This document shows, one piece after another, positions 888 to 46,588 of a stretch of DNA of 64,000 nt. Position 1 is the first letter of the stretch, and every line of letters begins with the position of its first letter. The stretch spans positions 1,685,778-1,749,777 of the forward strand of contig OY782877.1 of the NCBI GenBank assembly GCA_963678445.1, in the 5' to 3' direction. The stretch comes from Candidatus Hydrogenedentota bacterium. GTDB taxonomy: Bacteria; Hydrogenedentota; Hydrogenedentia; Hydrogenedentales; G963678445. The position numbers were made by a program, and so were the translations under genes. The notes under the pieces are model-generated. The model was given only the letters and a program-made list of their open reading frames with translations. It did not search any database and was not told where the DNA came from.

Positions 888-1020
888 AGACAATTCGTAC
901 GAAATTTTATTTTTAGATGAATAAAGCATTCCTGATGGAGTATTATTTACGAGCGGTTTGCGTAGTAACTGTTTTTTGCCACCATAAGAATGCAGGAACT
1001 TTATTAGACTGCAATCTGAA

Positions 1021-1105
1021 AAGCTGTCATAAAAAATGAGAAAGGTACTGTGCCCAGGAATAGGTATTGCCTGTAGCACTGGCCACCGCTGGACCTCTTT
1101 AGGAT
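1021..1105 (+). promoter_or_regulatory. Copy A of the repeated promoter/leader element (aagctgtcataaaaaa...ctggccacc-gctggacctctttaggat); lacks the 8-nt 'ttgtggtc' segment of copies B/C
   Basis: Direct sequence similarity to 18907..19010 and to the reverse complement of 15782..15886; ends 8 nt before the ATG at 1114; the ORF-table start at 1036 lies inside this element. Confidence 0.6.
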
Positions 1106-15781: not shown

Positions 15782-15886
15782 TCCTAAAGCGGTCCAGCGA
15801 CCACAAGGTGCTCAAAGGCACACCCAAGAAATATGGTCCTTACCGTCGCTGACCGCAGCAAAAAGTTCTTTTTTTTATGACAGCTC
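15782..15886 (-). promoter_or_regulatory. Copy B of the repeated promoter/leader element (minus strand), 23 nt upstream of the ATG at 15758
   Basis: The reverse complement reads agctgtcataaaaaaaagaactttttgctgcggtcagcgacggtaaggaccatatttcttgggtgtgcctttgagcaccttgtggtcgctggaccgctttagga; about 90% identical to copy C over about 60 nt. Confidence 0.65.
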
Positions 15887-15914
15887 TTCAGATGCCTGGC
15901 ACCAACAAAAGGGA

Positions 15915-18906: not shown

Positions 18907-19010
18907 AAGCTATCATAAAAAACGAAATTTTACTGCGGTCAGGGAAGGTAAGAATCATATTTCTTGGGTGTGGCCCTGGCCACCTTGTGGTCGCTGGACC
19001 GCTTTAGGAT
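18907..19010 (+). promoter_or_regulatory. Copy C of the repeated promoter/leader element; ends 24 nt before the ATG at 19035
   Basis: aagctatcataaaaaacgaaattttactgcggtcagggaaggtaagaatcatatttcttgggtgtggccctggccaccttgtggtcgctggaccgctttaggat; upstream gtgact N17 cataaa looks promoter-like. Confidence 0.65.
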
Positions 19011-21167: not shown

Positions 21168-24100
21168 TTAGCGACGGCGACGCCGCAGGGATAGAGCGCC
21201 GACAGCGGCGCAAAGTCCGGCCAATACTCCCAGGCCCGCCATACCCGCAGCAGGAATGGCCGGAAGTACGGTCAAGTTTGCCTCGAGCATTAGCACATCG
21301 CCGTTGCTGTCGGAGACGATTAGTTGATAGACACCTGCATTCTCTTCATAGACGGCAGGTATGAAGAAACTCAGTAAATCATTGGTCTTTGCAGGCGATT
21401 CCACAGGACGGCCTTCGTATTGCCATTCCAGGGAAAACGGAGGATAGCCTCCATGCGTAATCACAAAGAATGTGTGTGAATTCCCTGCAGTCACCTCAGC
21501 GTCCATGGGTGGTTCAACCACTTGTAAATGAGGTGCCAGCTCAAGTTGAGCGCGTGGCGTACTGTATGTTACGCCGGAATAGGTGGCCTCACACCAGTAG
21601 GAACCGGCATGTGCAAAACCAAGCGGTTCGAGGATGAACTCAGGCGCATCTTCGCCCACGTCATGTATGGCTTTGCTCATCGTGTCGGCCCATTTCCATT
21701 GATAGTGCACACTGCCCACGCCACAGGCGGGCGCAACGGAGAAGGTTTGGCGATCCCCTACGTAAGCGCGGGTATCTTCAGGTTGTTTTGCAAAGCCGCA
21801 CCAGTTTTCGATGGTGTATTGGGCGGTGTCTCCACCTGCGTAATACAAACCGGTCAAATCCTGCACGTCGGCCCCCAACAGGATACCTATCGTCCCCTCT
21901 GCATCGGGTTCCAGCAACTCAACTTGCACGGTATAAACGGGGTCATCATAAAGCAGCATAAAGGAGGCCGCGCTTGCCAGCGTCCCGATGAGAGTAACAT
22001 CGGCTTCGGTAAACGTAGGCGCGACAGGGTCGTCGAATGTTACGACAAAATCTACCTGGGTGTGGGAAGTCGGGTTTTCGGTTGCAAGCACAATCTCGGC
22101 CCGGGGCGGTTGCGTGTCCACAATCAGTTCGTCTACGGTCGCATCGAAGCCCGTACTTCCGCCACTGGTCGCAGCGACTACGACATCGTAGACTCCTTCG
22201 GCAAGCGGCGGCTGGATGGTGTCATCGGGCAGTACCCACTGGCCATTACCAAGATTTTGTGCTGCATAGGTTGTACCGCCCACAGCAACAGAGAGGGTTG
22301 CGTCCAGCTTGTTTACCGTACCCGTCAGCGGCGGGGTAGGATCGGTAGTAAAAAGCTCATTTATTGTCACCACGGGCACGTTCAAATCGATGAGAAGCTC
22401 GTCGGTTGTTTTATCCCGTCCCACGTTGCCTGCCGCATCTGTTGCTGAAACACCTACATTATAGGTCGTGGGAAAGAGTTCTGTCAGCACACCGCTTTCA
22501 AGACGCCATGTGCCATCGCCCAGATTGAGGGCGTCGCAGATCTGACCGCCAACGGTGACAACAATGGTGGCGGTAGGGTCGTCAACGGTCCCTGTCAATG
22601 CTGGGCTTGCACTGCCTGTGATTAAGGTATCCACACTAACTATAGGCTTGAGCACGTCCACCACAATCTCGTCTAACGTGAGATCCTGTGTTTCGTTACC
22701 CACGGAATCGCTCGCCGTCGCTACGACGTCATAGACGCCAGGTAATAAAAGAATGGAGGAGGCGGGCAAAACCCATGTGCCGTCGCCCTGGTTCACGGCA
22801 AAAACGGTGTATAACCAAACTTGCACTAAAACCGTTGCGGTGGGGTCGTTCACAACACCGGAAATTGCCGCCATGCCATCATTGGTGATGAGTGAATCCA
22901 CCCCTACTGTAGGCGCAATTGTATCGACAACAAGTTCGCCGGTCGTTGTATCGTGCAGGGTGTTTCCGATGGTGTCTGTCACGGTGACAGCAACATCGTA
23001 AATACCGTCTGGCAGGGTAGTCACCTGGTTGTCGGCGATACTCCAATGTCCATCGCCATCATTGACCGCCGTCAATGTTTGTCCGGCTACCGTTACACTG
23101 ACTGCTGCGGTGGGGTCGGCCACATCTCCTTGCAAGGGAGGGGTGCGATCGGTGGTCCCCAGATAATCTACGGTGGGAAGGGCTGCATAGAGATGGATGG
23201 TGTCACTTAAAACGGAGGATTCGCCGTATGCATTTTTAATTTTTACGAAAAGCCTCTTTTCTCCATCGCCTTCGCTGAGCTGCACCTGCGGTTGTGACGT
23301 CAGAGGAACCCAGGATGCGCCATCCATGGAAGGGGTTTCACTAGCCATGAAATGGGTCGCACCATTCATGTGGGTCATATCAAGTTGGACTGTGGAATTG
23401 ATGGAGGTTTCCGCATCTTGATTGATCACAAAATCAAAGAGGGTTGGGGGTACATGAAAGGTAATCTGCTGCTTAGGGTCGGTGAAGTATTCTTCTTCAA
23501 GGAGACCATCGAATGGAACCGGAATGGCAGGAATGTTGATGTTGAAATTCACGTCGGTCAGGTTGGCGATGTTTAGCCGAATGGCGACTGTGGGTTGAAG
23601 GGTCACATCGGGCTCAAGTTGAACCGCGGTGGCGATATTGGCAACGGTGACGTCGGCATCGGCGGCTGTGATGTTGCGATGCTCACCGTCGGAGGTAAAA
23701 TTTCCTCGATCGGTTTCCAAGCGTTTAAAGGTGGCCTTGACTTGATCTCCTGCGGTCAGACTGACTCCGATTTTACCGGTGACTACACCGCTGATATCGA
23801 TTGGAATGTCGAAAAGGTCGATATCATTCAATGCCGCTGCCAGCATGACCGTTTCGCCAAGATTATATGCGGTGATCGTTTTTTCATCTTGCAGGCGCAA
23901 CGTTTCGGAGGGAACAATAGGGAAATCGTCTTCCAGCGTGTATTCCTGTCCGAAGGCTTCGAAATGAATCCGGTATTGGCCACCCAGCGAAATACCGATG
24001 TTTTGCTGTACGGTGCTTGGCGCGCCTATAAAATGCAAATCGCCTAAATCCATCCCGATCGGACAGTCTAGCTGGGCTGCGCCATTGAGGGTGCCGGCAA

Positions 24101-24326
24101 AGAGGATGCCGTCGACGCCACCGGTAAAACGCACATCCGCACGCCCTATACCAAAATCGAAGCCTCGCCATCCGGTATCAAAATGCCAATCGGGGAAGCC
24201 TTCTTCCATTTCCAGGGGGGCATGCTCTTCTTCATACGATGCTGCAAAACCCGCCATGGGAAAAATAGCAAGGAGCCCCACAAGCAATCCTCGCGTCACG
24301 CGTTTCTTTCCTTCTTGAGCTGTCAT
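21168..24326 (-). CDS. Large secreted Ig-like-repeat surface protein (1052 aa): signal peptide, beta-rich N-domain, about 5 bacterial Ig-like repeats, 2 Ig I-set-like domains, C-terminal tripartite sorting tag
   Basis: Signal peptide [15 protein letters not shown]; about 95-aa repeats ([12 protein letters not shown] / [11 protein letters not shown] / [11 protein letters not shown]); C-terminus [33 protein letters not shown]. Confidence 0.7.
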   Translation of the reverse strand: [1052 protein letters not shown]

Positions 24327-24347
24327 AACCTCACATCCCTTTATCGC

Positions 24348-27300
24348 TTAGCGCCGCAGACCACGTCGCGTCATTACACCCAATACTGCCAACACTGCAA
24401 CCAGTGTGATCAGACTCCACACACTGCTTGCCGGCACGCCTGTTCCCACCACAACCAAGTGTTTCTGGGTAACCATCTTGATTTCTTCGTAATTTGTCAC
24501 GGTCAGCGACACGGTATATGCGCCATCGTGTTTATAAACATGCACTGGATTCTGTTCCGTGCTCGTGCCGCCATCGCCAAAGTACCAGTACCATTCTGCC
24601 ACCGGCTTGACCGTGGTCAGCGTCCGGTCATAGAACTGTACGGAAAGCGGTGCACGACCTGTAGGTGGAAATGCTTCGAAATCGGCCTCCATGGACGACT
24701 TGGTGTATTTACCGATGAATTGAATCGTGTCACCCACTTCGAGAAGACGCGATACGGTTGCTGGTGTCGGCGCCCCATACCCTTCTAATGGCTTCCAGGT
24801 CAGGCTGAGGGGGCCGCTGGGGATCTGGTTCAGGGTGACTGTTCCCATGCCTTCGTAGATTCCACCGTCACTGTCGGTAAGGGTCCACTCTGCCGCAGCA
24901 GCAGTTACTTTGATTTCCACCGTACCGGTTTCGCGTGTATAGGTGAAGGGGTAATTGTTGGTAATGTTGCGCAACACCATCACCGAGGTGTCTTCGGGGG
25001 CAATCCATCCGGGTATGGGCTTGAACTTGACCATCCGTTCACCATCCGTACTGGCTAGCATCGCGCCACTGTCACGCCATTCGCCACCGGTAACGCGCCA
25101 TTGTGCACCCGCATTGCGGACGGCTTCTGGTAGCAGCGTTACGGATAGAATCCCTTCGCCCTCACCCAGAATGGGGATATAAGAACCCACCAATGTCAGG
25201 GTTTCGCCTGCACCCAGGGTCGCTGTTGCAGGGTTCGGTTCTGGCATCAGGTAGGTGTTCACATAGCCCCAAATCACCTTCAGCTCACCTGTAGGAATGT
25301 CGGTCAATGTCGTATCGCCCAAACCGGTATGGGGAGCACCATCGCCATCGATTAATGCCCACGGCGCCCCTTCCGGATCTACGTTGATGATTACCGTGCC
25401 CAGTTCACGCACATATTCGTAGGTAAGATCGTAGGGCGTGTTGCGCACAATGGTCATTGAGGCCGTCTCTGGTGCAATCCAGCCGGTCATGGGGGTAAAG
25501 GAAAGGGTAGCTTCCCCATCCGGCACTTCGAGTGTTGCACCAGTATTCTGCCAGGCTCCACCGTTAAAACGCCATTGCGCACCCGCGTCGCATACGCGGG
25601 CTGGGGTCAGATTCACGGTAAGATCGACGCGTCCTTCTCCGATGATAGGGGGGTAGTTTCCGGTGAAGGCAACCGATGCACCGGGAAACAGAACCAAATT
25701 CTGGGTGCTGGGCGTGGGGAGCATATAGGTTGCGAGCGGTTGCCAGGTAAGCGCAATTTCGCCTGTAGGCACATTTTCCACGATCGCACTTCCTTCACCG
25801 GTGTGACTTTCCCCGTCGCCATCGATGAATGACCATGGCGCATCCATGGGTGAGGCATAGATTTCTACGGTACCCGTCTGACGTGTCCAGGTTTCTGTCA
25901 GCTCCAACAAGTAGTCTTTGTTGATCGTGACTGTTTTTTTCTCCGGCGCTGCCCAGCCTTGTACGAGGTTGTAGGTAATGGTGTGTTCGCCCACTGGGGT
26001 AGCAACAAAGCTTCCGCTCTCCTGCCATTCTCCATCGTCCAGACGCCAGCGTGGGGTCTGAGCCAATACGCCATCGGGGGCAAAGTCAACTCGCACTGCA
26101 CCTTCATCAGGAATTTCTCCCATGCATGCAGGATAGTTAACAAAAACACTCTTTTGATAGTTCTCGTGCGTGCCCAAGCCTTCTGACAGTCCAATCAGAC
26201 CACCATAAAGATCCAGCTCCAGCCAGGTGATCACGATACGGCCGTCGAAGAACATCTCGATCTGAAAGTTAACCTGATTTTCCGTGATGATATTGCTCAG
26301 GAAAACCTTGTCGAAGGTAACAACGACGCGATTCGTATACTGTTTCCAGTAAACCGTGCCGCCTTGATCGGGTTTCAGGTCGGTAAAGATGCCGGAAATG
26401 CGTGGCAGGTCAAAATGCGCATCCACACTCGGATCATTTTCTGTATCAGGTGCGGTAAAGGTGATGTAGCCATTACTGCCAATGAAAAATGAGCTGTATT
26501 TTTCACCATACAGCGCTACCTGTTTCCCGTCGCTCAGCGTAATTTCAACAGCATCATTGTCTCCCAATGTCACCGGGGTGCCGTCGTAGGGACTGGTACG
26601 ATAATTACTCGTATCATCGACGCAGGCGACGTAGTAATTGTTGGAAAGATTGGGCGTGAAGAGTACGCGTTTATAGCTTACGTTGTTGTTGCCCATGGTG
26701 AAATGCTGTGTAAACCAATCGGTTGGCTCACCAGGACTGGGCTGACCGGTAAAATTAAGTTCTGATTTTGTAAAGGGGAAATCGCGCAACTTAATCGGCG
26801 TCCACTCCAGACGTGTAAGGAAGTTATCCGCATTCTCGCCCGGCCATTCCCAACGCCAGCCCAAGATTCCGAAGAAAACAACTGGGTAGACTTTTGCTCC
26901 CAGATTTAGCTCCGAATCGTTTTGGTAGGTCAGCTCGGTGCGATACCCTGCGGGGGGAATCACGATATCACGCGTTTCGTGTTCCGTTGTATACTGGTTC
27001 CCATCACTCAAATCGATGCTGTCGCATCGCAAGTAGCCATTGGCTACTGCGGCAATGTCCAGCGCAACGCCTGCTTTGGGAAGAGGCACCCAGTCGGGCA
27101 AGGTAATAAGCCCTCGGGTAATAAGTAGGGAAATAAGGTCTAAATTTACCACTTGCGTGCGTCCGGCTTCATCGCGCAATTCTGATGTTTCGTCCAGCAG
27201 GTAGGTATTGAATTCATCACGATCAGAAGCCACCATGTGAAAATCAGGCACGTAGGGGATATCGACAATAAAGGGATCTATCCAGGAGATGGGGATATCA

Positions 27301-30300
27301 AAGGCGAGCTTGAGGAAGAATTCTGCGCCGAAATAGAATCCCCAGTTGCCTGATGCGGCTCCCGCACTCAGCTGATTTTCATTAGCCAAGGTGAAATTAC
27401 CGCTGACGTTGGCGTCGTAGTTGAAGCCGGCCCCGGCGTTAAGACGCACCTGGATCACAAAACCACCGGGTTCGTCGCCACTGCCACCGGGAATCCAGCC
27501 TGAATCGAAACCGAGGTTTTCCATCCCTTGCGGCGGCACCGTAAATTGCACCATGCGCGTGATTGGATCATCGGCTTTTTCATCTGTCGCTTTAAGAGGA
27601 GAGAGGGGCGATTCGTCTGCCGGTTTAGTCCAAGTCTTCGCTTCGCCCGCCAATTCTTCGATTGGAAAATTTGGTTTTTCGTACTGATATACGAAAATTT
27701 GCATAATAGATCCGCCGGGTTCGTCGAGGCGGATGGAAAGGGGACGAATGCGACCATCTTTGAGTTTTTCTTCTGTGCGGCGCTCTGAAATCATTCGCTG
27801 CCCGTTGCTGTAGACAACCACTTCGAAGGGCTGCGCTCCTGCACTTTTCGGCAAGCGGTAGACTATTTCGTAATTTCCTGCTTGCACCGCGACCTTTTCG
27901 CGACCATCGCGCTGGATTGCACTTTTGGCGCCAGTAGCCTGTTGCGCCGCCAACAGTTCGCGGTGTTGCGATGAAAAGCCTGGGTTGCCGACACCTTGCG
28001 CACCCACACGCACGACACGACGCTCTGTTAATCCGTCGTCGCCGTAGTAGGCCACTTCAACGGAGCCATTTGTCTTCGCCAGTGCTGTCAATGCTTCGTC
28101 GGAGATTTGTGGATTGTTGGTATGCGCGGAATAAATCACCGCGTATTCGCCATAGGCGCTCATTCCCATGCCCAAAATAGCCACAAACAATACTATACGC
28201 ATGTATTTTGCATACGTGGATTTATGTCTCAATATAAATGCGCCTCCCAAAGCACAGCATAAGGCAAGCAGTGCAAGCGCAAATCCGTTCATTGTCGGTA
28301 CCATATACTCTACCTCGACTTCGATTTCACCCGTCTCACAGCTTTCCAACTCATCCGCCACCATACACATGTATACGCCGGCGTCGTCCATTTCGGCCGT
28401 ACCAAGGCTCAATACGGGACCTTGGAGCATGCCGGTATCTTCTATTTCGCCTTTCCCTTCGAGCTTGGTCCAATCATAGGTAACTTGGCCGAAAGCGCCG
28501 GTCACCGTGACTTCAAGGGAAAACAGATCGCCTTCTACGACTTTTTGCTGATTCCCGCCATCCACAGAGATGGTCAGCGCGTTTGGATTTAAGGCAATCC
28601 GATCGGTGATGGATTCTTCGGAGAGGTTGCCTGCGCGATCGCGCAGGGATAAAAATATGTCTTTGTAACCTTGACCGGGAGAAAGCTCCCAGGACAACAT
28701 TTCGCTGAAGGGCTGCCATGCGCCCCAATTCTCCCCGTCGTCACTCAAGCGCATCTCGATTACACCGCTACCACTCGCACCTTCGTCGGCTGTCAGCTTT
28801 AATTGCACGTCCGTTACGCGGGTGAAGGGGGCATTTTCGTCGATGACTATCGTACCTGCCGGCGGTGTCATGTCAATCGCAAGCAATCCAGCGCTTTCGC
28901 TGCTGCCAATCTGTCCGAGTACGTCGGTGGCCGTGATGCTTAAGCTGGCAGGACCGTCTACGTCGATAGAAGGGGTAACGGTATAGGTGTATTCATAGCT
29001 GCTGCCTTCATGGGCCGCATAGCTTGCCGCGTGGCCATTGACGGTAACTTCGGGCAATCCGGGTAGGCCGTTGTCATCATTTACGGTGAATGCAATCGTA
29101 ACTACATCGTTGGCCTTGGCGAATTCGGGATAGACGTTGACCGCACTGATGGTGGGTATCGTGCTGTCAATCAGCAACGCTGTTGTATTGGTAAGTGTGT
29201 CGGCATTCCCGACGCTGTCGACAACGGAAATAAGCACTGTGGCGGGGCCGTCGGGATTAATTTCGCCATCGACTGTATATCGGTAGGTATAGGCATCATC
29301 GGTTTGCGTTTCAAAATCCGCTGCATTTCCGTTTATCAGCACGGTGGGATAGGGCTGTACAGCGGTTGCGGCATCGATTGCTGAAAAGGTCAGACGGACC
29401 AGATCGCCATCTTTGGCAACGTTGGGATTTGCCTGCAGGGAGCTAATCTCGGGCGCTTGTGTATCCACGGTCAGCACATCATTGAAGACGGGGGCGGCGA
29501 TGTTGTTTACCATGTCGACCGCGTTTATCTGAATGGCTGCAGCTCCATTGGGGGAATCCGTTACTATGGAATAGGTGAATGTGTATTCGCTACCTGAGTG
29601 ACTGGTAGGCGCGCCAAGGTCTATTCCATCAACGGTGACGGTGGGGATACCTACTAATGGGCTGTAGCTATCCTGAAGTGTGAAGTGGATCTCAACCGTA
29701 TCACCGGCCTTGGCCATAGCGGGCGTTGCGGTGAGTCCGGTTATATCGGGAGGGGACAGGTCAATGGTAAACGCTGTTTCCGAGCGAAGTTCGCCCGCAT
29801 TACCGGCTACGTCTACTGCTGAGAAAACCACCGTTGCAAAACCTTGCGGGGCGCTAGCCGGTACCGCGTAGTCATAGGTATATGCGTTGCCGACAACCAT
29901 GGAGGGTGCGCCTACTACAACGCCTGCTACCGTGAGCATTGGTGCTGCGGAAAGTGCACTCACGTCCTCTACGCGGATGGAGAAGGTAACTGTGTCATAC
30001 GCACCTGCCAGGTAGGGTGTGATGGCGAGATCGTGGAAAGCAGGCGCCGTATTATCGATGAACAATATCGTGGTTTCTGTCGTCTCGGAACTGTTTCCCG
30101 CGGCGTCTGTTACCTGCACTTGCACAGTCGCCGCACCTTCTGGTGCATTCGATGGCAGGGTGTACATGTACGTGTATTCATCACCCGATGCAGATGATGG
30201 CGCGCCTACATTAGCTCCATTCACTTGCATGAGCGGGGCCGAAGGAAGGCCATTTGCATCCGTTGCTTCTACTTTCAGTGTTACGCGATCGCCTGCCCGG

Positions 30301-31967
30301 GCTGGTGAATTCAGGCAGGATACCTGCTGAATCACAGGCGCGGTTCCGTCGACAAAAAGCGTATTTGTGGATGTCTCCTGGCGGGTGTTTCCCGCACGAT
30401 CGACCGCATTCACGACGAGGGAAATGGGACCATCGGACGTAGCGGTCGGCACGGTGTACGCATATGTATATACATTGCCCGACGTAGCGGTCGGCGCACC
30501 CAGATCGACGCCGTTTGCGCGCATGGTCGGTGTGTCGGCAAGGCCATATACATCGCTCACGGTTACCCGCAATGTCGATGCTGTTCCGGGTTGTACATAA
30601 GCGGGATCTGCCTGAAAATTCGTGATGGTCGGCGGGGTGTCATCGATGGTCAACAACGCATTGGACGATTTGCCCTGGCTATTGCCTGCGGTGTCAATCG
30701 CCAATACCTCAATCAATGCCGCGCCTTGTGGAGCGTTAGTGGGCGTGGTGTAGGTATAGGTGTACACATTGCCCGCTGTCGACGTAGGCGCTCCGATAGA
30801 AACCCCGTTTATTGTCATCGTAGGCGCACTTGTTAACGCCACATTATCACTCGCCTCTACGGTGAGGGTTACAACGTCACCGCCTTGCACATATTGGGAC
30901 GAAACCGTCAGTACACCGACAACGGGGCGTGTGGTATCCAGCACCTGAATGGCGATATCTTCTTCATGGTACCCATTGTATGTTGCCGCATCGGTCACCC
31001 GCACGCGGATGGTATGACTGCCTGCGCTTCCCCGATCAATTAAGGTGGCATCGGCAATAGCGACTTCGACAGTGGTGGCGGTGGAAGCATTCAACGCAAA
31101 ACGTCCCCCTGCTGAATCCACCAATGTCCAGGTGTATGGCTCCACTCCATCCGCATCTGTTGCCTGTAACGTCCCCAGCAACGTTCCGTTAGCGTCCGAA
31201 TCCTGCACCGTCAATGCATTGGGCGCAATATCCGTCGGCGGCGCACTGTCCACCTTCAACACAATCGCCCCCATCGTTCCTTTGTCTGGCAGGTTCCACC
31301 CCGTCGTCAACGCTGTACCATTCAAGCCCGTCACCACCCCCATTGCACCTCCGTTGCGGTCTCCAAACCAGCCACTCACTTTCGGCCAACGCCGGTAGCC
31401 AAGTGTTTTTGTGCCGCCGCCTTTTATACCGGCTTCGTCCATTTCGTCCTTGGTGCTTACCAAGGTCACCAGCACTGCGCCCGCCTCGGCCTGTTGCGCG
31501 GTAAAGGAGACTTCCGGGTCGTCGCCATACCCACCCTGGGCAGCAATGACCGGTGTATCCAGATCGACTCCTGAAAAGCAATAGAGCCCACTCGTTTCCG
31601 GTTCTGTATCCCCTGAGAAGGCCAGCGCCACTGTTTGTGCGCCCGTGGGGGGATTGATGCAGTAGAATAACTGTGCGCGTTCATCCTCGCCTTCAAAATC
31701 CACCGCCTCGGTCATCGCCATCCCCCCCAAGGTGGCTGAGGCTTTACGGTGATTGCGGTTGGTCACCCCTAATATGGCCACTTTGGTGCCTGCGGGAATC
31801 GATGCGGTCGTCCATGACCAGGAGCTACCGCTGTTGGTGGTTTCCGCGCTGAATCCGGATTGGATATCGGGACCATTGAGCAAGGTAATCGCCCCGTAGC
31901 ATGGCATAATTACACAGGCAATGAGCATGCCTGTCCAGCATCCCGAAAAGACATTCCGAGCTGTCAT
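24348..31967 (-). CDS. Giant 2539-aa ORF: in-frame fusion of two adhesin-like genes. Module a (about aa 1-1248) is signal peptide + cadherin-like domain + about 8 Ig-like repeats + 2 Ig domains + sorting tag. Module b (about aa 1256-2539) is signal peptide + large domain + about 7 Ig-like repeats + PKD domain + sorting tag
   Basis: Junction ...[54 protein letters not shown]... at about 28200-28226; PKD motif [32 protein letters not shown]; C-terminus [30 protein letters not shown]. Confidence 0.7.
   Translation of the reverse strand: [2539 protein letters not shown]
24770..26270 (-). repeat. Alternating coding repeats in adhesin module b (GAQWR.NGGAWQ..GA modules interleaved with G.V.I...P..APW..IDGDG..HTG.G modules)
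   Basis: Protein-level periodicity in the ORF translation; boundaries approximate. Confidence 0.45.
28950..31000 (-). repeat. Tandem array of about 285-bp coding repeats (about 8 copies) encoding about 95-aa Ig-like modules (P..IS.L.A.P..AK.GD.V.L.F...D......PTV.ING......T...AYTY.YTV) inside adhesin module a
   Basis: Periodicity seen at protein level in the ORF translation; boundaries approximate; nucleotide copies are diverged. Confidence 0.5.
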
Positions 31968-32711
31968 AATTCCTTCCCCTCACGTCTGGCGCATCAGGTG
32001 TCTACATCGCACCTGCATCCGCATGACACGTCCGCCCTGCTGGACGGTAAAACTTCGTTGTGGCACAGCCGTCGTTTTTTTATGGTCTGTCATGACACGA
32101 AAAACGCGGCACCTAAAATTTCCCAGTTGTTGAACTATACGATCATTCCTTGGGTATGCACGCGAAAACATCCTGATTCCCTCGCACCCATGCGCCAAAC
32201 ATGGCCAATTCTCCGATTGTGTGTAACAGCCCCTTGACTTACAGGATACAGCCGTTTACACACGCACGAACTAGCAGAAACTTTTCCCGTTACACCGGTT
32301 CACATTGGCACAGACAGCACTACTGTCCATTCCGAGCAACTATCCACACCGGCGTCCCTTCCGCTTCTGCGAACTTGACAGGAATTTTCCCTTCTGCCTC
32401 TGTACGTCTTCACCATTTTCTGCACTGCAGCCAACAGCAGAGCCTGGCTTTGTTTGGAAAACGTTATTCTCGCTTTCTTTTTACATACAACGTACATTAT
32501 TCACGTTCACAGTTCTGCCATTATGCACTATTTCTCCAAAAATATACAGTCACCAGCGCTTTTTTGACTCTTTTCGCACCAGAAAGTTTCATTATTTGCG
32601 ACATTTAGCATTAAAACGGCCACGCCGCCCTGTTTTTAGGATGCAAAACGGGAAGCGCATCACTGCGCTTCCCCTCCAGAAAAACATGGATCACTCTATC
32701 TTGAAATGGGG

Positions 32712-35700
32712 CTACAAGGCTTGCAAAGCGCTAATCAGCTGCGCCAATTCCACACGTGCCTTACTCAACAGGGCAGAATCCTGGGTAAAATGCTCGTTAT
32801 CCACAATAATCGCCTCATCAATCGCCAAGGCAGCTTCCACCTCTTTGCGCAGCGCTTCCGGCACCGCCGCTCCCTTGTTTTGCAGCAAGTTTCGCAACAA
32901 GGCGAAGTACTCGTAATCTTCGATACCGTCGCGGGCAATACTCATGCGAATAGAGGCCCAGGGCACGCCGTTGGGACCGGGATAAATGAGATAGCCACAC
33001 CCATGGTGGCCCGGCTGACTGTTCCAGGGCATCCAGGGGCGTTCAGGCCAGCGCTCTTCACCGCTCACGTTATCCGCCCAATGGGTCGTCCCCCAATAGA
33101 GATAGCCTTGCGCGCCATATTTCCAGCACTGCCAGAAGATAAGGCGGTGATCAATGGCAGGGAAATCAATCATGATGCCGGGGCGATCCCAAACGGTATA
33201 GAACCAAAGATTTTCGCCCGCCTCTTTGCGTAATGCAACCATGTTGGGATCAAATTCGCCAATGACCGGGCACCAGGTATCCACCCCGCCCACCAGCGCC
33301 TGCTCTGGAGCACTGGTCTCAAGGACAGGCCATTGCGGCAGATTTTCCTTCACCCACTGGTTCATTTCAAGCACCTGCGGGATGATGTGGCGCGCCATAA
33401 CCGCGACCTCATCGTGCGCATAATACAGGGCTTTGTCTTCCCAGCCCTTTTCCTTGAGCAACGCCTGGGTCGCAAGCACTTTTTCTTTGTACTCGTCGCG
33501 TCCAGAGCCGTCAAAAAGGTCTGGAATGGGGATAAAGAAACAATTCTGCCCATGCGCCATAAGGTATTCGAAATCTTCCAGCATGTTTCCGCCGCCAAGC
33601 GGGAAGTTTTTGATCGGACTCATGCGGTGCTTGAGGTGCAAATCATAAAAACGTTTGCGCACCTCAAAAGGCGTGCGTCCCTCATACTTGTAGAAACGCT
33701 GCACCTGGCTCTCTTTCATCCAGAACGAAGTCTTCAGCGTAGTTTGCTCAGGCAACGCAAAATCCCATACATCTACTTCAAGAGGAACATTCAGTGTACC
33801 CGCATTCGCCGTCGTCACCTTCAGCACGCCGCTGTATTTACCCGGAGCTGTGTCCGCATCGGTATGCACGGTGATATAAAACGGCTGCGCTTCTTGCGTG
33901 AAAGGCACGTCGAGCTGCGCGTTTGGTTCCAGTACATCCGGATAGAAGCCCACTTTTTCGATTGGAAAATTGTATTCTGGCTCGCCAATCTTCACATAGC
34001 CCACGCCATAGATTTCGATCTGATCGGCGCGCAAAACGGTATCGCCATCTTCCTGCTTAAGATCAACGGCCTGCACTGCAAGCTGATTGAGATCCTGCCA
34101 AAGCGGCACCACCACCAGTTGTGCAGATTCGTATTCGTTGCGTGCCAGCTGAATCTGGACCGGTTTAGGAGCTCGTTTTGTGGAAAGCAGTGCTTCATCC
34201 CGGAAAACCTTGCGCAAAGTCGTTTCCGGCACCGCGGCAAAAGCACCCGCTGTAGCAGGCGTGGCCGCCGCTGCATAAAGGCGCGCTACTTCACGGCGCA
34301 ACAGATCCAGCGCTCCTTGCACCTGCGCAATCATCGCCGCACCACCTTCTTGCGGCATGGCTTTCATCAAGGCGTCACTGGCAGCGTTCACCTGCTTTTC
34401 CAGGGAGCTATGGGCGGCAGCACGCACCGCTTCATCGGCCAGTTTTTCCATAGCGGCATAGCCATCCTGCGTCAGTGTTTGCAAGACTTTGTTTTCCGCC
34501 TCAAATGCATTAAACGTGGCCTCTTCCTCGACCACGCCCAGCAATTGGGCGCCACCCGTATCTACCAAACGCATCGCAAGCTGGTATTTGCCACCCGTAG
34601 CCGCGAACAAATCGAATGCCGCCTCTTTTGCTTCTCCCGGCGCACAGGTTTCGCTGACAACCTGGCTTACGACGCTACCATCCGGACGTGTAATCTCAGC
34701 AATGGTGTCCAAGCGACGCGGACGGATGCTCTGGTTGGCAAACTTAAAGCGTATACGGTTTTTACCTATCTTCAACGGCGCAAACTGCACCAGAGAAAGC
34801 GGCGCGTCGATTGCATCTACCGCCACCGCTGGTGCAGGGGTAAAGGCTGCACCGTGAACATTGCCCGACAACTGCGCATCGTGCGCCAGCATGGGCCAGG
34901 GCAGCTTTTCAGGGACATATTTCCCGCCTAAACTCAAACTGCGGACCGTGCGATCTTTACCGGTAAAAATAATCTCAACTTCACCATCCCCATCCACATC
35001 GCCCAAAGCAGGTGTCGTCAACGGCTGGGCCGTGGTTTTGAAATCCCACTCTTCTTCCCCCTGTGCAGAGAAACAAACCAAACGACTGGAGCGTGCGCAC
35101 ACGAGGATTTCGAGCTCGCCATCGCCATCTACATCGCCCACCGAAGGGCCTTGTACAATGCCGCCCAAACGCGCAGCACCGGCATCGGCCGCCCATAGCA
35201 ATTCTCCATTGCGAATACGATAAACGTGGCCGGATTTGTCGCCCGCAAGCACATCCAACATCCCTTTGCCCTCAAAATCAACCAGCGCAAATGAACAGGC
35301 GTTATCAATACTCCCCTTACCCTTGAACCGCCATTGTTCCTCCCCATTTTCCGCATCATAGGCAATCACCTGGAAATCTTCCGTCGCCGAAACCACCTCC
35401 AGACGCCCATTTCCATTCAAATCGCCCACCGCAACGTTACTACGGCGCTCTTTGCGGGGCTGTCCATCCATCTGTGACCAGACCAGATTGCCATCATGGT
35501 CAAAACAGGCCATCAACCCGCCGCCAAAGGTAATATAAACTCGCATTACCGGACTGTCACCCAGTTGTGCAACGGCAGGAATGCCACGGATCGCGCCGTC
35601 GGCCTGATAATGCCACAGGGCTTGTCCTGTATCATCAAGACAGTACAGTGTACCGCTTTCCGAACCAAAAAGAATCTCAATACGTCCATCCGCGTTGATG

Positions 35701-36137
35701 TCAGCAACCACAGGACCGGTATAATCCATCTCATCGCCCATGGAAACACGCCAGACAAGACGCCCCTGGTAATCCAGGCAACCCGCCGAACCATCACGGG
35801 TAAGGAAAAAGACTTCCTTTTTCCCATCACCGTCATAATCCACTACGGACGGTGTCGCATGAAAACCATCCAACACCTCTTCTTTCAGATGAAAATCCCA
35901 GCGTAAATTGCCTTGGCCATCAAAGCAAAGCATGCGACGCGCCCGTGAGGCAGCCACAATGATTTCCGTCGCCCCATCTCCGTCAATATCAGCAAGAACA
36001 GGCGAGGCGTAAATCTTGCCCCCCGTTTCATAGCTCCACTCCACCTCCGGCGCAACCGTTGCGGCTACGCCTGGCAGTGAAAAAAGGGGGGAAACACATA
36101 CCACTACGCAACACACATTTCGAAAAAATAGGTTCAT
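32712..36137 (-). CDS. Secreted FG-GAP/beta-propeller repeat protein with a C-terminal glycoside-hydrolase-like domain (1142 aa)
   Basis: Signal peptide at internal start MNLFFRNVCCVVVCVSPLFSLPGVAA (AGGAG RBS); about 8 DxDGDGxxE(I/V) FG-GAP/VCBS blades; C-terminal region is TIM-barrel-like (DUF4091-like, uncertain). Confidence 0.65.
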   Translation of the reverse strand: MNLFFRNVCCVVVCVSPLFSLPGVAATVAPEVEWSYETGGKIYASPVLADIDGDGATEIIVAASRARRMLCFDGQGNLRWDFHLKEEVLDGFHATPSVVDYDGDGKKEVFFLTRDGSAGCLDYQGRLVWRVSMGDEMDYTGPVVADINADGRIEILFGSESGTLYCLDDTGQALWHYQADGAIRGIPAVAQLGDSPVMRVYITFGGGLMACFDHDGNLVWSQMDGQPRKERRSNVAVGDLNGNGRLEVVSATEDFQVIAYDAENGEEQWRFKGKGSIDNACSFALVDFEGKGMLDVLAGDKSGHVYRIRNGELLWAADAGAARLGGIVQGPSVGDVDGDGELEILVCARSSRLVCFSAQGEEEWDFKTTAQPLTTPALGDVDGDGEVEIIFTGKDRTVRSLSLGGKYVPEKLPWPMLAHDAQLSGNVHGAAFTPAPAVAVDAIDAPLSLVQFAPLKIGKNRIRFKFANQSIRPRRLDTIAEITRPDGSVVSQVVSETCAPGEAKEAAFDLFAATGGKYQLAMRLVDTGGAQLLGVVEEEATFNAFEAENKVLQTLTQDGYAAMEKLADEAVRAAAHSSLEKQVNAASDALMKAMPQEGGAAMIAQVQGALDLLRREVARLYAAAATPATAGAFAAVPETTLRKVFRDEALLSTKRAPKPVQIQLARNEYESAQLVVVPLWQDLNQLAVQAVDLKQEDGDTVLRADQIEIYGVGYVKIGEPEYNFPIEKVGFYPDVLEPNAQLDVPFTQEAQPFYITVHTDADTAPGKYSGVLKVTTANAGTLNVPLEVDVWDFALPEQTTLKTSFWMKESQVQRFYKYEGRTPFEVRKRFYDLHLKHRMSPIKNFPLGGGNMLEDFEYLMAHGQNCFFIPIPDLFDGSGRDEYKEKVLATQALLKEKGWEDKALYYAHDEVAVMARHIIPQVLEMNQWVKENLPQWPVLETSAPEQALVGGVDTWCPVIGEFDPNMVALRKEAGENLWFYTVWDRPGIMIDFPAIDHRLIFWQCWKYGAQGYLYWGTTHWADNVSGEERWPERPWMPWNSQPGHHGCGYLIYPGPNGVPWASIRMSIARDGIEDYEYFALLRNLLQNKGAAVPEALRKEVEAALAIDEAIIVDNEHFTQDSALLSKARVELAQLISALQAL

Positions 36138-36368
36138 CTCTTTCTCCTGTTTATAGCAAGATCCAACCGTCCAAAATCTGTCGTATTGCAATTTCGCATT
36201 GTGACACGAATGTGTTTCAATATACAAAAAGCATGCCCGCGACCTTGACGGAGATGTAACCGACTTTATTTCAAGTACTTAACTTGCTCCCAACACTGTC
36301 TTTAAACCCGTTCAGCAGCTGAACCAACTCACACCCGCAAAGTCGCTAATGCCACCCCAAAAAATTGC

Positions 36369-36410: not shown

Positions 36411-36486
36411 TGCCGGCTAGCCAAATTGGTAAGGCACCAGTTTCTGGTACTGGCGATTCCAGGTTCGAGTCCTGGGCCGGCAGCCA
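36411..36486 (+). tRNA. tRNA-Gln (anticodon CUG)
   Basis: Cloverleaf folded by hand: acceptor tgccggc/gccggca with the U1:A72 pair typical of tRNA-Gln; anticodon stem ccagt/actgg; loop ttCTGgt; T-arm ggttcgagtcc; CCA encoded. Confidence 0.8.
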
Positions 36487-36522: not shown

Positions 36523-36598
36523 GGCCCCTTCATCTAGTGGTCTAGGATGCAGGATTCTCAGTCCTGTCACAGGGGTTCGAACCCCCTAGGGGCTGCCA
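36523..36598 (+). tRNA. tRNA-Glu (anticodon CUC)
   Basis: Acceptor ggcccct/aggggct; anticodon stem cagga/tcctg with loop ttCTCag; T-arm aggggttcgaacccct; CCA encoded. Confidence 0.8.
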
Positions 36599-44582: not shown

Positions 44583-44640
44583 CGGTACATTGGTCGTAGC
44601 AAAACTCCGTTTTTTTATAATAGCTTTTGAAGCGTCAGTC
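44583..44640 (-). promoter_or_regulatory. Copy D (5' promoter half only) of the repeated element, upstream of the VanZ-like gene
   Basis: The reverse complement reads gtgactgacgcttcaaaagctattataaaaaaacggagttttgctacgacc; compare copy C gtgactgacacttcaaaagctatcataaaaaacgaaattttactgcggtc. Confidence 0.5.
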
Positions 44641-45999
44641 ACTACTGTAGTTCACCACCTCGCCAAATGAATTGCGTTCTACACGCCAGGTGTGACCGGC
44701 AAGGGTAATGCCGCGCAGGGGTGCACCCTGATTTTCTGCTGCTGTGTCGCGCACAAGGCTGGCTCGCTGCACACGTACAAGCCCATTGTTGGCTATCGAC
44801 AAAACCGGCGTGGTTACGTCGCCGTCAGAAAGCATATCGGCCAGTAGCAGCAACGTATCGAGTACAGCGCCGCCTTGCGTGGAAAAGCGTTGCGCCCCGA
44901 CCTCGAAGGCTTTTGGCGTGTTGAGCGCCCAGAGTACGCCGGTCAGGGGTAGCAGGGAATCGGGCTGTTGAAGGTAATGGCTTGGCGGCACGAAGGGACG
45001 TGCATAGCAGCCCGGATTTTCGCCTGCAGCTTGCAAGATGGCGTTGCGTTGCGCTGCCAGCTGTGGCCGTTTGGTAAATTGGGTTTGCTGCACTTCATAT
45101 AATAACGCCTCGACTGCGTGCAAGGTGAATGAGGGCGCGCTTTGCGGGCCGACACTTGGGAAAAAGGCCTCTGGATCTGACATGAGGGACATCGGTTCGA
45201 TGGGTAAATGCAGCACCGCACCCGGATGACGCAGACCCAGTTCGTCGTTCTCGGCCCCTACGCTTTCGGGAAACAGGACCAGTCGCACGTCGTGCAGTCC
45301 TGCAGGAAGCGCTTGGAAAAGGCTGCGCAAACTGGCCCAATGGGTGCTTGTTAACGCGCCATTATCGAAGGCAAATACGTAGGTCTCGGAAAAAAAACGG
45401 TATACTTCGTTAGGCATCTGAAGCCATCCGTTTAGTTTTTCCGCTGGGATAAAACGCGCGAGGGTGAGGCAGGTCTGCATGGCGGCACGGGCCTCTGGCA
45501 ACATGGGTTCCTGATCGGGTGGTGCAGATAGCCATCGTGTCAACGGAAGCGGTTCTTTCGCAAGAGTGGCCAGGCCTTCCCGAAGGGCGGTATCTGCCGA
45601 GGCAAACCCGGAGCGTTGTTGTTCCAGCCACGCAAGCAGCATGTCCACCGAGGGAATATGCGGTGTCTCTTGCATGAATGCTGCCTGCAAACCTGCGGCT
45701 ACATAGGCTGCGGTGGCGCGCCATACTGGTTGTGCGTCGTCCCCTGCCGTTTGAGCCTGGGTGGCGAGAAAACGCAGTATTCCTTCACTGGGGGGCTCGT
45801 TTTCAAACAACACAGCAAAGCAGTCCCGCCAATCCACGGCAGTATGCGAGGCGTCTTTTAGCTGGCGCGTTAAAAATGCCATTGACGCGGCGTCTTGCTT
45901 CTGAAACGCCTCCAGCACCCGTCCTTGATCGTAGGTGCTCCACGATGCAGCAGCAACGCTACACCCTATCAGTGCTATCGCACACAGCCCGTACCGCAT
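44635..45999 (-). CDS. Hypothetical secreted protein (454 aa); no recognisable family
   Basis: Signal peptide MRYGLCAIALIGCSVAAASW; same strand as and upstream of the VanZ-like and PBP1A genes. Confidence 0.45.
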   Translation of the reverse strand: MRYGLCAIALIGCSVAAASWSTYDQGRVLEAFQKQDAASMAFLTRQLKDASHTAVDWRDCFAVLFENEPPSEGILRFLATQAQTAGDDAQPVWRATAAYVAAGLQAAFMQETPHIPSVDMLLAWLEQQRSGFASADTALREGLATLAKEPLPLTRWLSAPPDQEPMLPEARAAMQTCLTLARFIPAEKLNGWLQMPNEVYRFFSETYVFAFDNGALTSTHWASLRSLFQALPAGLHDVRLVLFPESVGAENDELGLRHPGAVLHLPIEPMSLMSDPEAFFPSVGPQSAPSFTLHAVEALLYEVQQTQFTKRPQLAAQRNAILQAAGENPGCYARPFVPPSHYLQQPDSLLPLTGVLWALNTPKAFEVGAQRFSTQGGAVLDTLLLLADMLSDGDVTTPVLSIANNGLVRVQRASLVRDTAAENQGAPLRGITLAGHTWRVERNSFGEVVNYSSD

Positions 46000-46195
46000 A
46001 GATTCCCCTTTTCCGTTGCAATGTCTAGTGTTGTATATACGAACAGCGTTTATTATACCTCCCTTCTAAGGTCAACGCCATACGGTCGGAACGGTAGTCT
46101 ATAACGCTGGTCGCTAGAACGGCGTCTGACATTTTCTTGCCTTTGAAAGGGGAAGGCAATACAATGATAGTGCTGCGAAAAGATAAGGGGGACTC

Positions 46196-46588
46196 ATGAC
46201 AAAACTTTCCTTTTCCGTCCGATTGCTACTCTATGAGGGTGTAGGCTTTTTCTTGCTCATCCTGTTTATCTGGATGGATGAATTACTGGATTTACCGCAG
46301 TATTTTTTTGGTGCGCCTAATACGCCTATCAATTTTTTGGAGAGCGCTATTGAAACGACTGTAGCCCTCTTGCTGGCGACCTTGGTACTGGTACTGACCT
46401 GGCGGCTTTGTCACAAAATACGGTATTTGGAGGGTTTCCTGCATGTATGCAGTTTCTGCAAGCGTATTCGGGTCGATGACAAATGGATCCCGCTGGAAAC
46501 CTATCTACATCAAAATTCTGCCGCTGAAATGTCGCATGGGATCTGCCCTGATTGTGCTCAACAGCATTATGGCGACCTCTTAAAATAA
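46196..46588 (+). CDS. Two-TM membrane protein with a C-terminal Cys4 zinc-ribbon-like domain (CSFCKRIRVDDKWIPLE...SHGICPDC)
   Basis: Two N-terminal hydrophobic helices; CxxC...HG-CPxC spacing read from translation; this module resembles an uncharacterised C-terminal domain I recall appended to some bacterial signalling proteins (recollection, not verified). Confidence 0.5.
   Translation: MTKLSFSVRLLLYEGVGFFLLILFIWMDELLDLPQYFFGAPNTPINFLESAIETTVALLLATLVLVLTWRLCHKIRYLEGFLHVCSFCKRIRVDDKWIPLETYLHQNSAAEMSHGICPDCAQQHYGDLLK

Follow-up and report, generated by a model that had tools for sequence, protein, structure and literature searches.

Gene and protein encoded at the locus

The subject of this study is a small gene in a stretch of 64,000 nucleotides of contig OY782877.1 from a Candidatus Hydrogenedentota bacterium (assembly GCA_963678445.1, positions 1,685,778 to 1,749,777), referred to as the window. 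The gene encodes a protein of 130 amino acids, in which a conserved domain with two transmembrane (TM) helices (2-TM domain) is joined, through a short linker, to a C-terminal module with four cysteines (Cys4 module). The open reading frame (ORF) and its two TM helices had been pointed out in an earlier note on this DNA and were borne out by the sequence, the Kyte-Doolittle hydropathy, and the AlphaFold2 (AF2) model; the C-terminal string quoted there was also exact: residues 85-120, with Cys at positions 85, 88, 117, and 120. The elements of the gene and its product, all on the + strand, are as follows.

46137-46165, +: sigma-70-like promoter candidate, TTGCCT-17-TACAAT; consensus scan, 9/12 matches, a pattern match only
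46185-46192, +: Shine-Dalgarno-like sequence AAGGGGGA, with 3 nucleotides between its end and the ATG; read from the sequence
46196-46588, +: coding sequence of 130 amino acids, ATG to TAA (stop included); read directly from the sequence
46196-46426, +: conserved N-terminal 2-TM domain, a predicted input domain, residues 1-77; hydropathy, AF2 helices, profile, and fusions elsewhere
46214-46270, +: TM1, residues about 7-25; Kyte-Doolittle
46343-46399, +: TM2, residues about 50-68; Kyte-Doolittle
46400-46441, +: juxtamembrane helical linker, residues 69-82 (WRLCHKIRYLEGFL); AF2 helix H45-74 runs on from TM2
46442-46585, +: C-terminal Cys4 module, residues 83-130; profile, column conservation, and AF2
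46448-46450 (C85), 46457-46459 (C88), 46544-46546 (C117), and 46553-46555 (C120), +: ligand candidates, by the pattern C-x2-C-x28-C-x2-C

Profiles of the two domains both matched this ORF (E = 3.9e-36 for the module and 3.9e-32 for the N-terminal domain), and no other profile match was found in the six-frame translation of the window. With such E values and a single hit in the window, these matches were far beyond chance.

Distribution and conservation of the Cys4 module

A search with the whole protein detected four relatives only, one of which (P0004) had no TM helices and carried a PAS-like remnant before the same C-terminal segment. The profile A2, built from the last 58 residues, was then run against 1.84 billion cluster representatives (50% identity), of which 23,971 matched at E ≤ 1e-3 and 18,834 at E ≤ 1e-10. 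The four Cys residues were kept in 409-410 of the 411 aligned module instances and a Trp (W97 in the window protein) in 409. Several other non-ligand residues were conserved at 89-100%: K89 (96%), R92 (93%), E101 and H114 (at least 90% each), Y103 (89%), and P118. Most instances (390) had 29 residues between the two CxxC pairs, and 18 had 28, as does the window protein. The net charge of the module ranged from -5 to +4, with a median of -1, which was also the value of the window protein.

The consensus of the module was L-x-G-L-L-P-I-C-A-S-C-K-K-I-R-D-D-x-G-Y-W-x-Q-I-E-x-Y-I-x-x-H-S-E-A-E-F-S-H-G-I-C-P-D-C-x-K-K-L-Y-P, from which the window protein keeps L78, G80, L82, K89, I91, R92, W97, E101, Y103, S113-H114, and P118. 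The module was prominent in Desulfobacterota, Spirochaetota, Nitrospirota, Acidobacteriota, Gemmatimonadota, and the Planctomycetes-Verrucomicrobia-Lentisphaerae lineages, and the annotation of its carriers went no further than "PAS domain S-box protein", "sensor with HAMP domain protein", or "hypothetical protein". The earlier note had named a lack of homologs and a Cys spacing that varies among them as grounds for giving up its view; instead, homologs were found in 23,971 representatives, with an essentially invariant pattern.

The module has escaped the curated collections that were compared here: a copy of Pfam with models up to 2025, NCBIfam release 20.0 (June 2026), and the PDB sequences. 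The whole protein gave only sub-threshold matches in these three (RIM2a_ZnF, the zinc-binding domain (ZBD) of ClpX, Csx27, and the La protein), and a Pfam scan of 143 relatives placed no model over the Cys-rich region. Full-text searches of the literature found no description of the module; InterPro, CDD, and COG lay outside the comparison. Thus, the domain was rightly called uncharacterised in the earlier note, as far as Pfam, NCBIfam, and the PDB are concerned. Although the general kind, modular bacterial sensor proteins, is known, neither of the two domains described here is curated in these databases.

Position, partners, and coupling of the module

Architectures were examined in the 143 top-scoring representatives. 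The distance from the end of the module to the C-terminus of the protein was 6 residues in the median and 25 or fewer in 135 of the 143; in the window protein, the module core ends at Y125, five residues before the last. The partner domains assigned by Pfam were all of input or receiver types: PAS variants (in up to 43 proteins), MASE6 (20), REC (14), HAMP (6), and GAF (4), and, furthermore, Cache, PocR, 7TMR-DISM, and FIST. GGDEF, H-box, and EAL motifs were found in none of the 143. These architectures agree with the resemblance drawn in the earlier note to a C-terminal domain of bacterial signalling proteins: a homologous module indeed follows PAS, MASE6, REC, HAMP, GAF, and Cache domains. 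In a protein of 212 amino acids with a REC-linker-module arrangement (L063), the module is the sole domain after REC, and many carriers, of the MASE6 and 7TMR-DISM types, are polytopic membrane proteins.

The Asp of the "DIT" motif of PAS and the first Cys of the module were 21, 28, 35, or 42 residues apart in 65 of 80 cases, and exactly 35 in 47 of them. In PAS-kinase and PAS-cyclase proteins, spacing by heptads of this kind marks a signalling helix, a parallel coiled coil that drives a dimeric effector. Since the distance between PAS and the module is quantised in heptads, the module appears to be an effector coupled through a coiled coil.

Two copies of the module were present in 42 of the 143 proteins. 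Many of the top relatives were internal duplications, among them a type of about 530 amino acids (P0131, P0134-P0141, and similar proteins), in which a unit of about six TM helices and a Cys4 module occurs twice, and P0125, in which the repeated unit is two TM helices and the module. In these duplicated proteins, one module lies in the middle of the protein, between two membrane domains. The matches to MASE6 (20 of the 143) probably belong to these duplicated proteins.

The N-terminal 2-TM domain

The architecture of the window protein, 2-TM domain plus module, was found in only one of the 143 top representatives, so that the description of it in the earlier note as an unusual minimal architecture holds in the sense of a minority form. 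It is, on the other hand, a recurrent family and not an isolated case. A profile of the 2-TM domain alone (A6, from a query of 77 amino acids) matched at least 110 clusters at 90% identity, all annotated as hypothetical and, with few exceptions, 130-140 amino acids long. The homologs listed for such short queries appeared to be limited to about twice the query length (at most 116 amino acids for the query of 58, and 140 for that of 77), and the domain architectures were therefore taken from other searches: the module profile against the cluster representatives, the Pfam scan, and a search of contigs with the loop motif described below. In a scan of one genome per GTDB species, full-length relatives were found in about 19 genomes of at least eight phylum-level groups, which included Spirochaetes, Bacteriovoracaceae, delta-proteobacteria, Planctomycetales, Ignavibacteria, Desulfobulbus, Lentisphaerae, and Acidobacteriota. 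The full-length homologs in other phyla, Verrucomicrobiota included, were 42-55% identical to the window protein, and the closest named one was a protein from a metagenome-assembled genome (MAG) of Verrucomicrobiota (48% identity). One member of the family, Despr_1274, is from a cultured bacterium, Desulfobulbus propionicus DSM 2032.

The hydrophobic segments at residues 7-25 and 50-68 coincide with the AF2 helices H3-31 and H45-74 (mean pLDDT of 83 for the full-length model). Between the helices is a short acidic loop with a motif that reads W26-x-D-E29-x-x-D32-x-P34...G39...T43-P44-x-N46-x-x-E49-x-x-x-E53 in the window protein and W-x-[DN]-E-x-x-D-x-P-H-x-L-F-G-A-x-x-T-P-x-N-x-x-E-S-x-x-E in the family. 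In the A6 alignment, the N-terminal 77 residues were free of large gaps; E29, D32, and P34 were invariant, and E49 and E53 were conserved at 90% or more. The predicted topology is N-in and C-in with the acidic loop in the periplasm, because K3 and R9 precede TM1, R70, K74, and R76 follow TM2, and the loop has neither Lys nor Arg (positive-inside rule). The linker is likewise constrained: its end corresponds to the lead-in L-x-G-x-L of the family (L78, G80, and L82 conserved), and the distance from E49 to the first Cys was 36 residues in all 101 members of the 2-TM family compared (101/101). As for the sub-threshold match to Csx27, an accessory protein of type VI-B CRISPR (NF040557), it scored 13.4 bits against a cutoff of 65, covered the hydrophobic region only, and was rejected as noise.

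A search of metagenome contigs with the loop motif, which is independent of what follows the loop, yielded 70 loci. The Cys4 module stood directly after TM2 in 56 of them. In others, the place behind the 2-TM domain was taken by GGDEF (L093; Pfam E = 1.9e-47), by HisKA plus HATPase_c (Pfam; L094 and L152), by a truncated kinase (L101), or by a helical tail with no assignment (L116). These fusions to GGDEF or HisKA-HATPase identify the 2-TM region as a modular input domain, and the earlier description of the module as fused to a membrane anchor alone does not stand. Judged from the sequences, the 2-TM domain is a new, uncurated input domain common to kinases and cyclases, behind which the Cys4 module appears to be interchangeable with a kinase or a cyclase domain.

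One further locus (L106; metagenome contig Ga0190293_1023852, ORF from about 461) carries the 2-TM domain, the Cys4 module, and a C-terminal cystatin (PF00031, E = 1.1e-08), an odd fusion for a cytoplasmic module.

Predicted fold and comparison with known proteins

The AF2 model of the module alone (pLDDT of 89.4) consists of a hairpin (E17-20/E23-26) and two helices (H27-34 and H45-56, in module numbering). In the order of the protein, a CxxC knuckle is followed by the β-hairpin (90-93 and 96-99), a helix (100-107), a loop with H114, and the last helix (118-129), and C117 and C120 are located at the N-terminus of this last helix, not on the hairpin, according to the DSSP assignment of the AF2 model. 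The zinc ribbon proposed in the earlier note does not fit this arrangement because the second Cys pair starts a helix, whereas both pairs need to be on hairpins in a zinc ribbon; no zinc-ribbon model of Pfam was above threshold for the window protein. To judge by the string of secondary-structure elements alone, the predicted fold looks nearer to a treble clef: the order of the elements fits, yet an extra helix (100-107) and a loop intervene, and no protein in the PDB gave a significant structural match to the model.

No significant match was found between the module profile and the PDB sequences, either. The best one (E = 0.03, sub-threshold) was the N-terminal hairpin of vertebrate glutamate dehydrogenase (1hwy_A and others), which resembles residues 91-108 of the module, I-R-D-D-x-G-x-W-x-x-I-E-x-Y-x-x-H-S. 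This likeness is probably a coincidence.

Among the family, the Cys4 modules share with the window protein a common core, L-x-G-x-L-P-x-C-x2-C-K-x-I-R...W...E-x-Y...H-x2-C-P-x-C, placed C-terminally after a helical linker. The window protein differed from most carriers of the module in its 2-TM partner, which replaces cytoplasmic PAS or REC domains, and in a spacer shorter by one residue (28 vs 29). It is laid out, and would work, like the intramembrane-sensing histidine kinases of the LiaS, BceS, and DesK types, whose minimal input consists of two TM helices around a short extracytoplasmic loop (about 20 residues), with TM2 running straight into the cytoplasmic transmitter; however, the window protein has the Cys4 module instead of a kinase domain.

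Several small zinc-binding domains were also compared. The N-terminal ZBD of ClpX (PF06689) and the finger of DksA/TraR (PF01258) are likewise small Cys4 domains, in which one CxxC forms a knuckle and another opens a helix. Local motifs are similar in ClpX (CSFC[KG][KR] and IC[PD][DE]C), and the finger of DksA also follows a coiled coil. On the other hand, the spacer is 28-29 residues in the module and about 17-18 in these fingers, and the module has an extra helix between the hairpin and the second Cys pair. Membership in the ClpX ZBD family was rejected (E = 0.16; 12.3 bits against a cutoff of 27, with 7 residues covered). The zinc-binding GAR (Gas2-related) domain (PDB 9kbw_A, 5ve9_C, 1v5r_A, and 5x57) was also listed among the closest known systems. 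An assignment to the ZAS anti-sigma family (zf-HC2) was rejected as well: this family needs an N-terminal, helical H-x3-C-x2-C, whereas the motif here is H114-x2-C117-x2-C120 and C-terminal. There was no match to zf-HC2 in the window protein, and it was not among the best 25 of the 41 Pfam families found for the 143 relatives.

A putative membrane-bound signal transducer

These results suggest that the window protein is rather likely to be a minimal, probably dimeric, membrane-bound signal transducer that consists of two conserved, uncurated domains. A stimulus would be sensed by the short acidic extracytoplasmic loop or by the TM helices themselves; by analogy with acidic-patch and intramembrane sensors, cations, pH, and the state of the membrane are candidate signals. 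TM2 and the linker of fixed length would shift upon the stimulus and pass the change to the cytoplasmic module of about 45 residues, in which the four Cys would hold a stabilising metal, most likely Zn(II). In the dimer, the two Cys4 modules would then be arranged differently relative to each other or become more or less accessible, and this would alter how they bind a conserved target in the cytoplasm, which is more likely to be a protein than a nucleic acid.

The module probably acts as the output of its signalling proteins, because it is placed where the histidine kinase or diguanylate cyclase domain is found in sibling proteins. The conservation of its non-ligand residues, together with the lack of a linked partner gene, suggests that the cytoplasmic target is broadly conserved. 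A protein is weakly favored over DNA as this target because of the median charge of the module and the frequent occurrence of polytopic membrane proteins among its carriers.

In a wider and more tentative reading, the module may be a major, undescribed class of bacterial output, with about 24,000 clusters at 50% identity in at least ten phyla. It may receive its input from PAS, REC, HAMP, GAF, MASE6, and the new 2-TM domain, and may act on a universally conserved cytoplasmic target; possibly, then, it is an output without kinase, cyclase, or DNA-binding chemistry. The usual outputs of bacterial signalling are histidine kinases, c-di-GMP enzymes, DNA-binding domains, methyl-accepting proteins, and phosphatases. 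If the module is truly an output, a whole branch of signalling is at present invisible to annotation, and if the wider reading is true, the window protein, with its 130 amino acids, is the smallest natural sensor-output pair of the class and the simplest handle on its mechanism. The window protein has one mini-sensor, one linker, and one module in 130 residues, so that in it and in relatives such as Despr_1274 the metal, topology, dimer, and partner are directly testable.

Several points weigh against a transducer with the module as its output. None of the members has a known target, ligand, or phenotype. Clustering of the neighboring ORFs revealed no conserved gene beside the 2-TM family (20 loci) or the module carriers (80 genome loci); only generic PAS-kinase and REC genes recur, so that the genomic context points to no partner. 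The architectures were obtained from the top-scoring representatives, not from a random sample of the 23,971. The window protein itself departs from the consensus at three well-conserved positions: H83 for Pro, N107 for His, and M112 for Phe. The binding of a metal by the four Cys residues, most likely Zn(II), is read from the Cys pattern and the predicted fold only. Finally, a module of this small size might conceivably serve as a structural cap, or sense redox state or a metal, and not be an output.

The last point leads to an alternative that we regard as unlikely, in which the Cys4 module would be an input that senses oxidants, Zn, or Fe through its thiols or a bound metal, as the sites of RsrA, Hsp33, and PerR do, or else would be only a structural or dimerisation cap. 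In both cases, the proteins would use their PAS or TM domains to sequester other sensors or to form heterodimers with them. Redox and metal switches are classically built on Cys4 sites, and neither an output activity nor a linked partner gene can be assigned to the module. H114-x2-C117-x2-C120 is also superficially similar to the H-x3-C-x2-C of ZAS proteins, although Pfam gave no zf-HC2 match. However, the module is always in the transmitter position after a coiled-coil linker quantised in heptads, it is exchanged for GGDEF or HisKA-HATPase after the same 2-TM domain, and proteins that consist of the 2-TM domain or REC and the module would be left without any output. Furthermore, the conservation of W97, E101, Y103, K89, R92, and H114 (89-100%) is beyond the need of a structural cap.

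The occurrence of the module as the sole domain after REC, as in L063, also bears on another alternative: a membrane-tethered, nucleic-acid-binding regulator similar to ToxR or CadC, with the Cys4 module as a DNA or RNA zinc finger and the REC-module proteins as ordinary DNA-binding response regulators. Most outputs of response regulators bind DNA, REC was found in 14 of the 143 representatives, and the conserved basic residues K89 (96%) and R92 (93%) adjoin the first knuckle. We consider this explanation improbable: the median charge of the module is -1, many carriers are polytopic in the membrane, no significant likeness to a DNA-binding finger was found in Pfam or the PDB, and no conserved adjacent target genes were present in the 20 and 80 loci.

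The short length of the protein, the absence of a curated family, and the departures at H83, N107, and M112 might suggest a frame that is open by chance or a functionless gene in decay, but conservation effectively refutes this: full-length homologs of 42-55% identity in Spirochaetes, Bacteriovoracaceae, Planctomycetales, Ignavibacteria, Desulfobulbus, Lentisphaerae, Acidobacteriota, and Verrucomicrobiota, no loss among the four Cys or at the invariant Trp, Glu, and Pro positions, a good ribosome-binding site, and a copy of 99% identity in the same context on a 3.5-Mb contig.

Neighboring genes and other elements of the window

The divergent neighbor of the Cys4 gene is an ORF of 454 amino acids (44635-45999, - strand) with no match in Pfam; its N-terminus, MRYGLCAIALIGCSVAAASW, resembles a lipoprotein signal peptide with the lipobox L-I-G-C. 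Downstream, a DUF3089 gene follows after about 150 nucleotides, and then an alpha-L-fucosidase gene and a YhdP/AsmA-like gene. The 99%-identical copy on the 3.5-Mb metagenome-assembled contig is in the same gene context, including the ORF of 454 amino acids. At another locus (L002), an AMMECR1-like ORF, recognised by eye in its translation, stands before the gene and an alpha-2-macroglobulin gene after it; this context is unrelated to that in the window. The Cys4 gene looks like a stand-alone unit. A tblastn search against plasmids gave one weak match only, with no annotation.

The earlier note had also seen a weak resemblance between the upstream region of the Cys4 gene and a repeated leader element. 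The 16-mer concerned, ctggtcgctagaacgg, is located at 46107-46122, about 14 nucleotides from the place given for it (46093-46115), and is unique in the window even when up to 3 mismatches are allowed (0.49 matches expected by chance). Two blocks that recur in the window are probably the leader element that was meant:

15839-15858 (-) and 18933-18952 (+): repeated leader core, CTGCGGTCAG[CG]GA[CA]GGTAAG; two copies, against 0.02 expected by chance
1014-1035 (+) and 15872-15893: second shared leader block (3' part), ATCTGAA[AG]AGCTGTCATAAAAA; directly before the ORF starts at 1036 (+) and 15827 (-)

The region upstream of the Cys4 gene matched neither the core nor the 3' part (up to 3 mismatches, or blastn-short at E ≤ 0.05), and the resemblance was not upheld. 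The repeated leader reached the gathering score of no Rfam family. The pattern GGAAC-N17-GTC, which is similar to the promoter consensus of extracytoplasmic function (ECF) sigma factors, occurs once in the window (46088-46112), about 85 nucleotides upstream of the ATG.

Elsewhere in the window, three very large ORFs of 1052, 2539, and 1171 amino acids with internal short repeats (families D1, D5, and D9) occupy 21168-36227 (- strand). Two tRNA genes (36411-36483 and 36523-36595, + strand; Rfam RF00005, 60 and 52 bits) are 40 nucleotides apart, and after them come sbcD, a gene of the PDDEXK family, and an sbcC-like gene.

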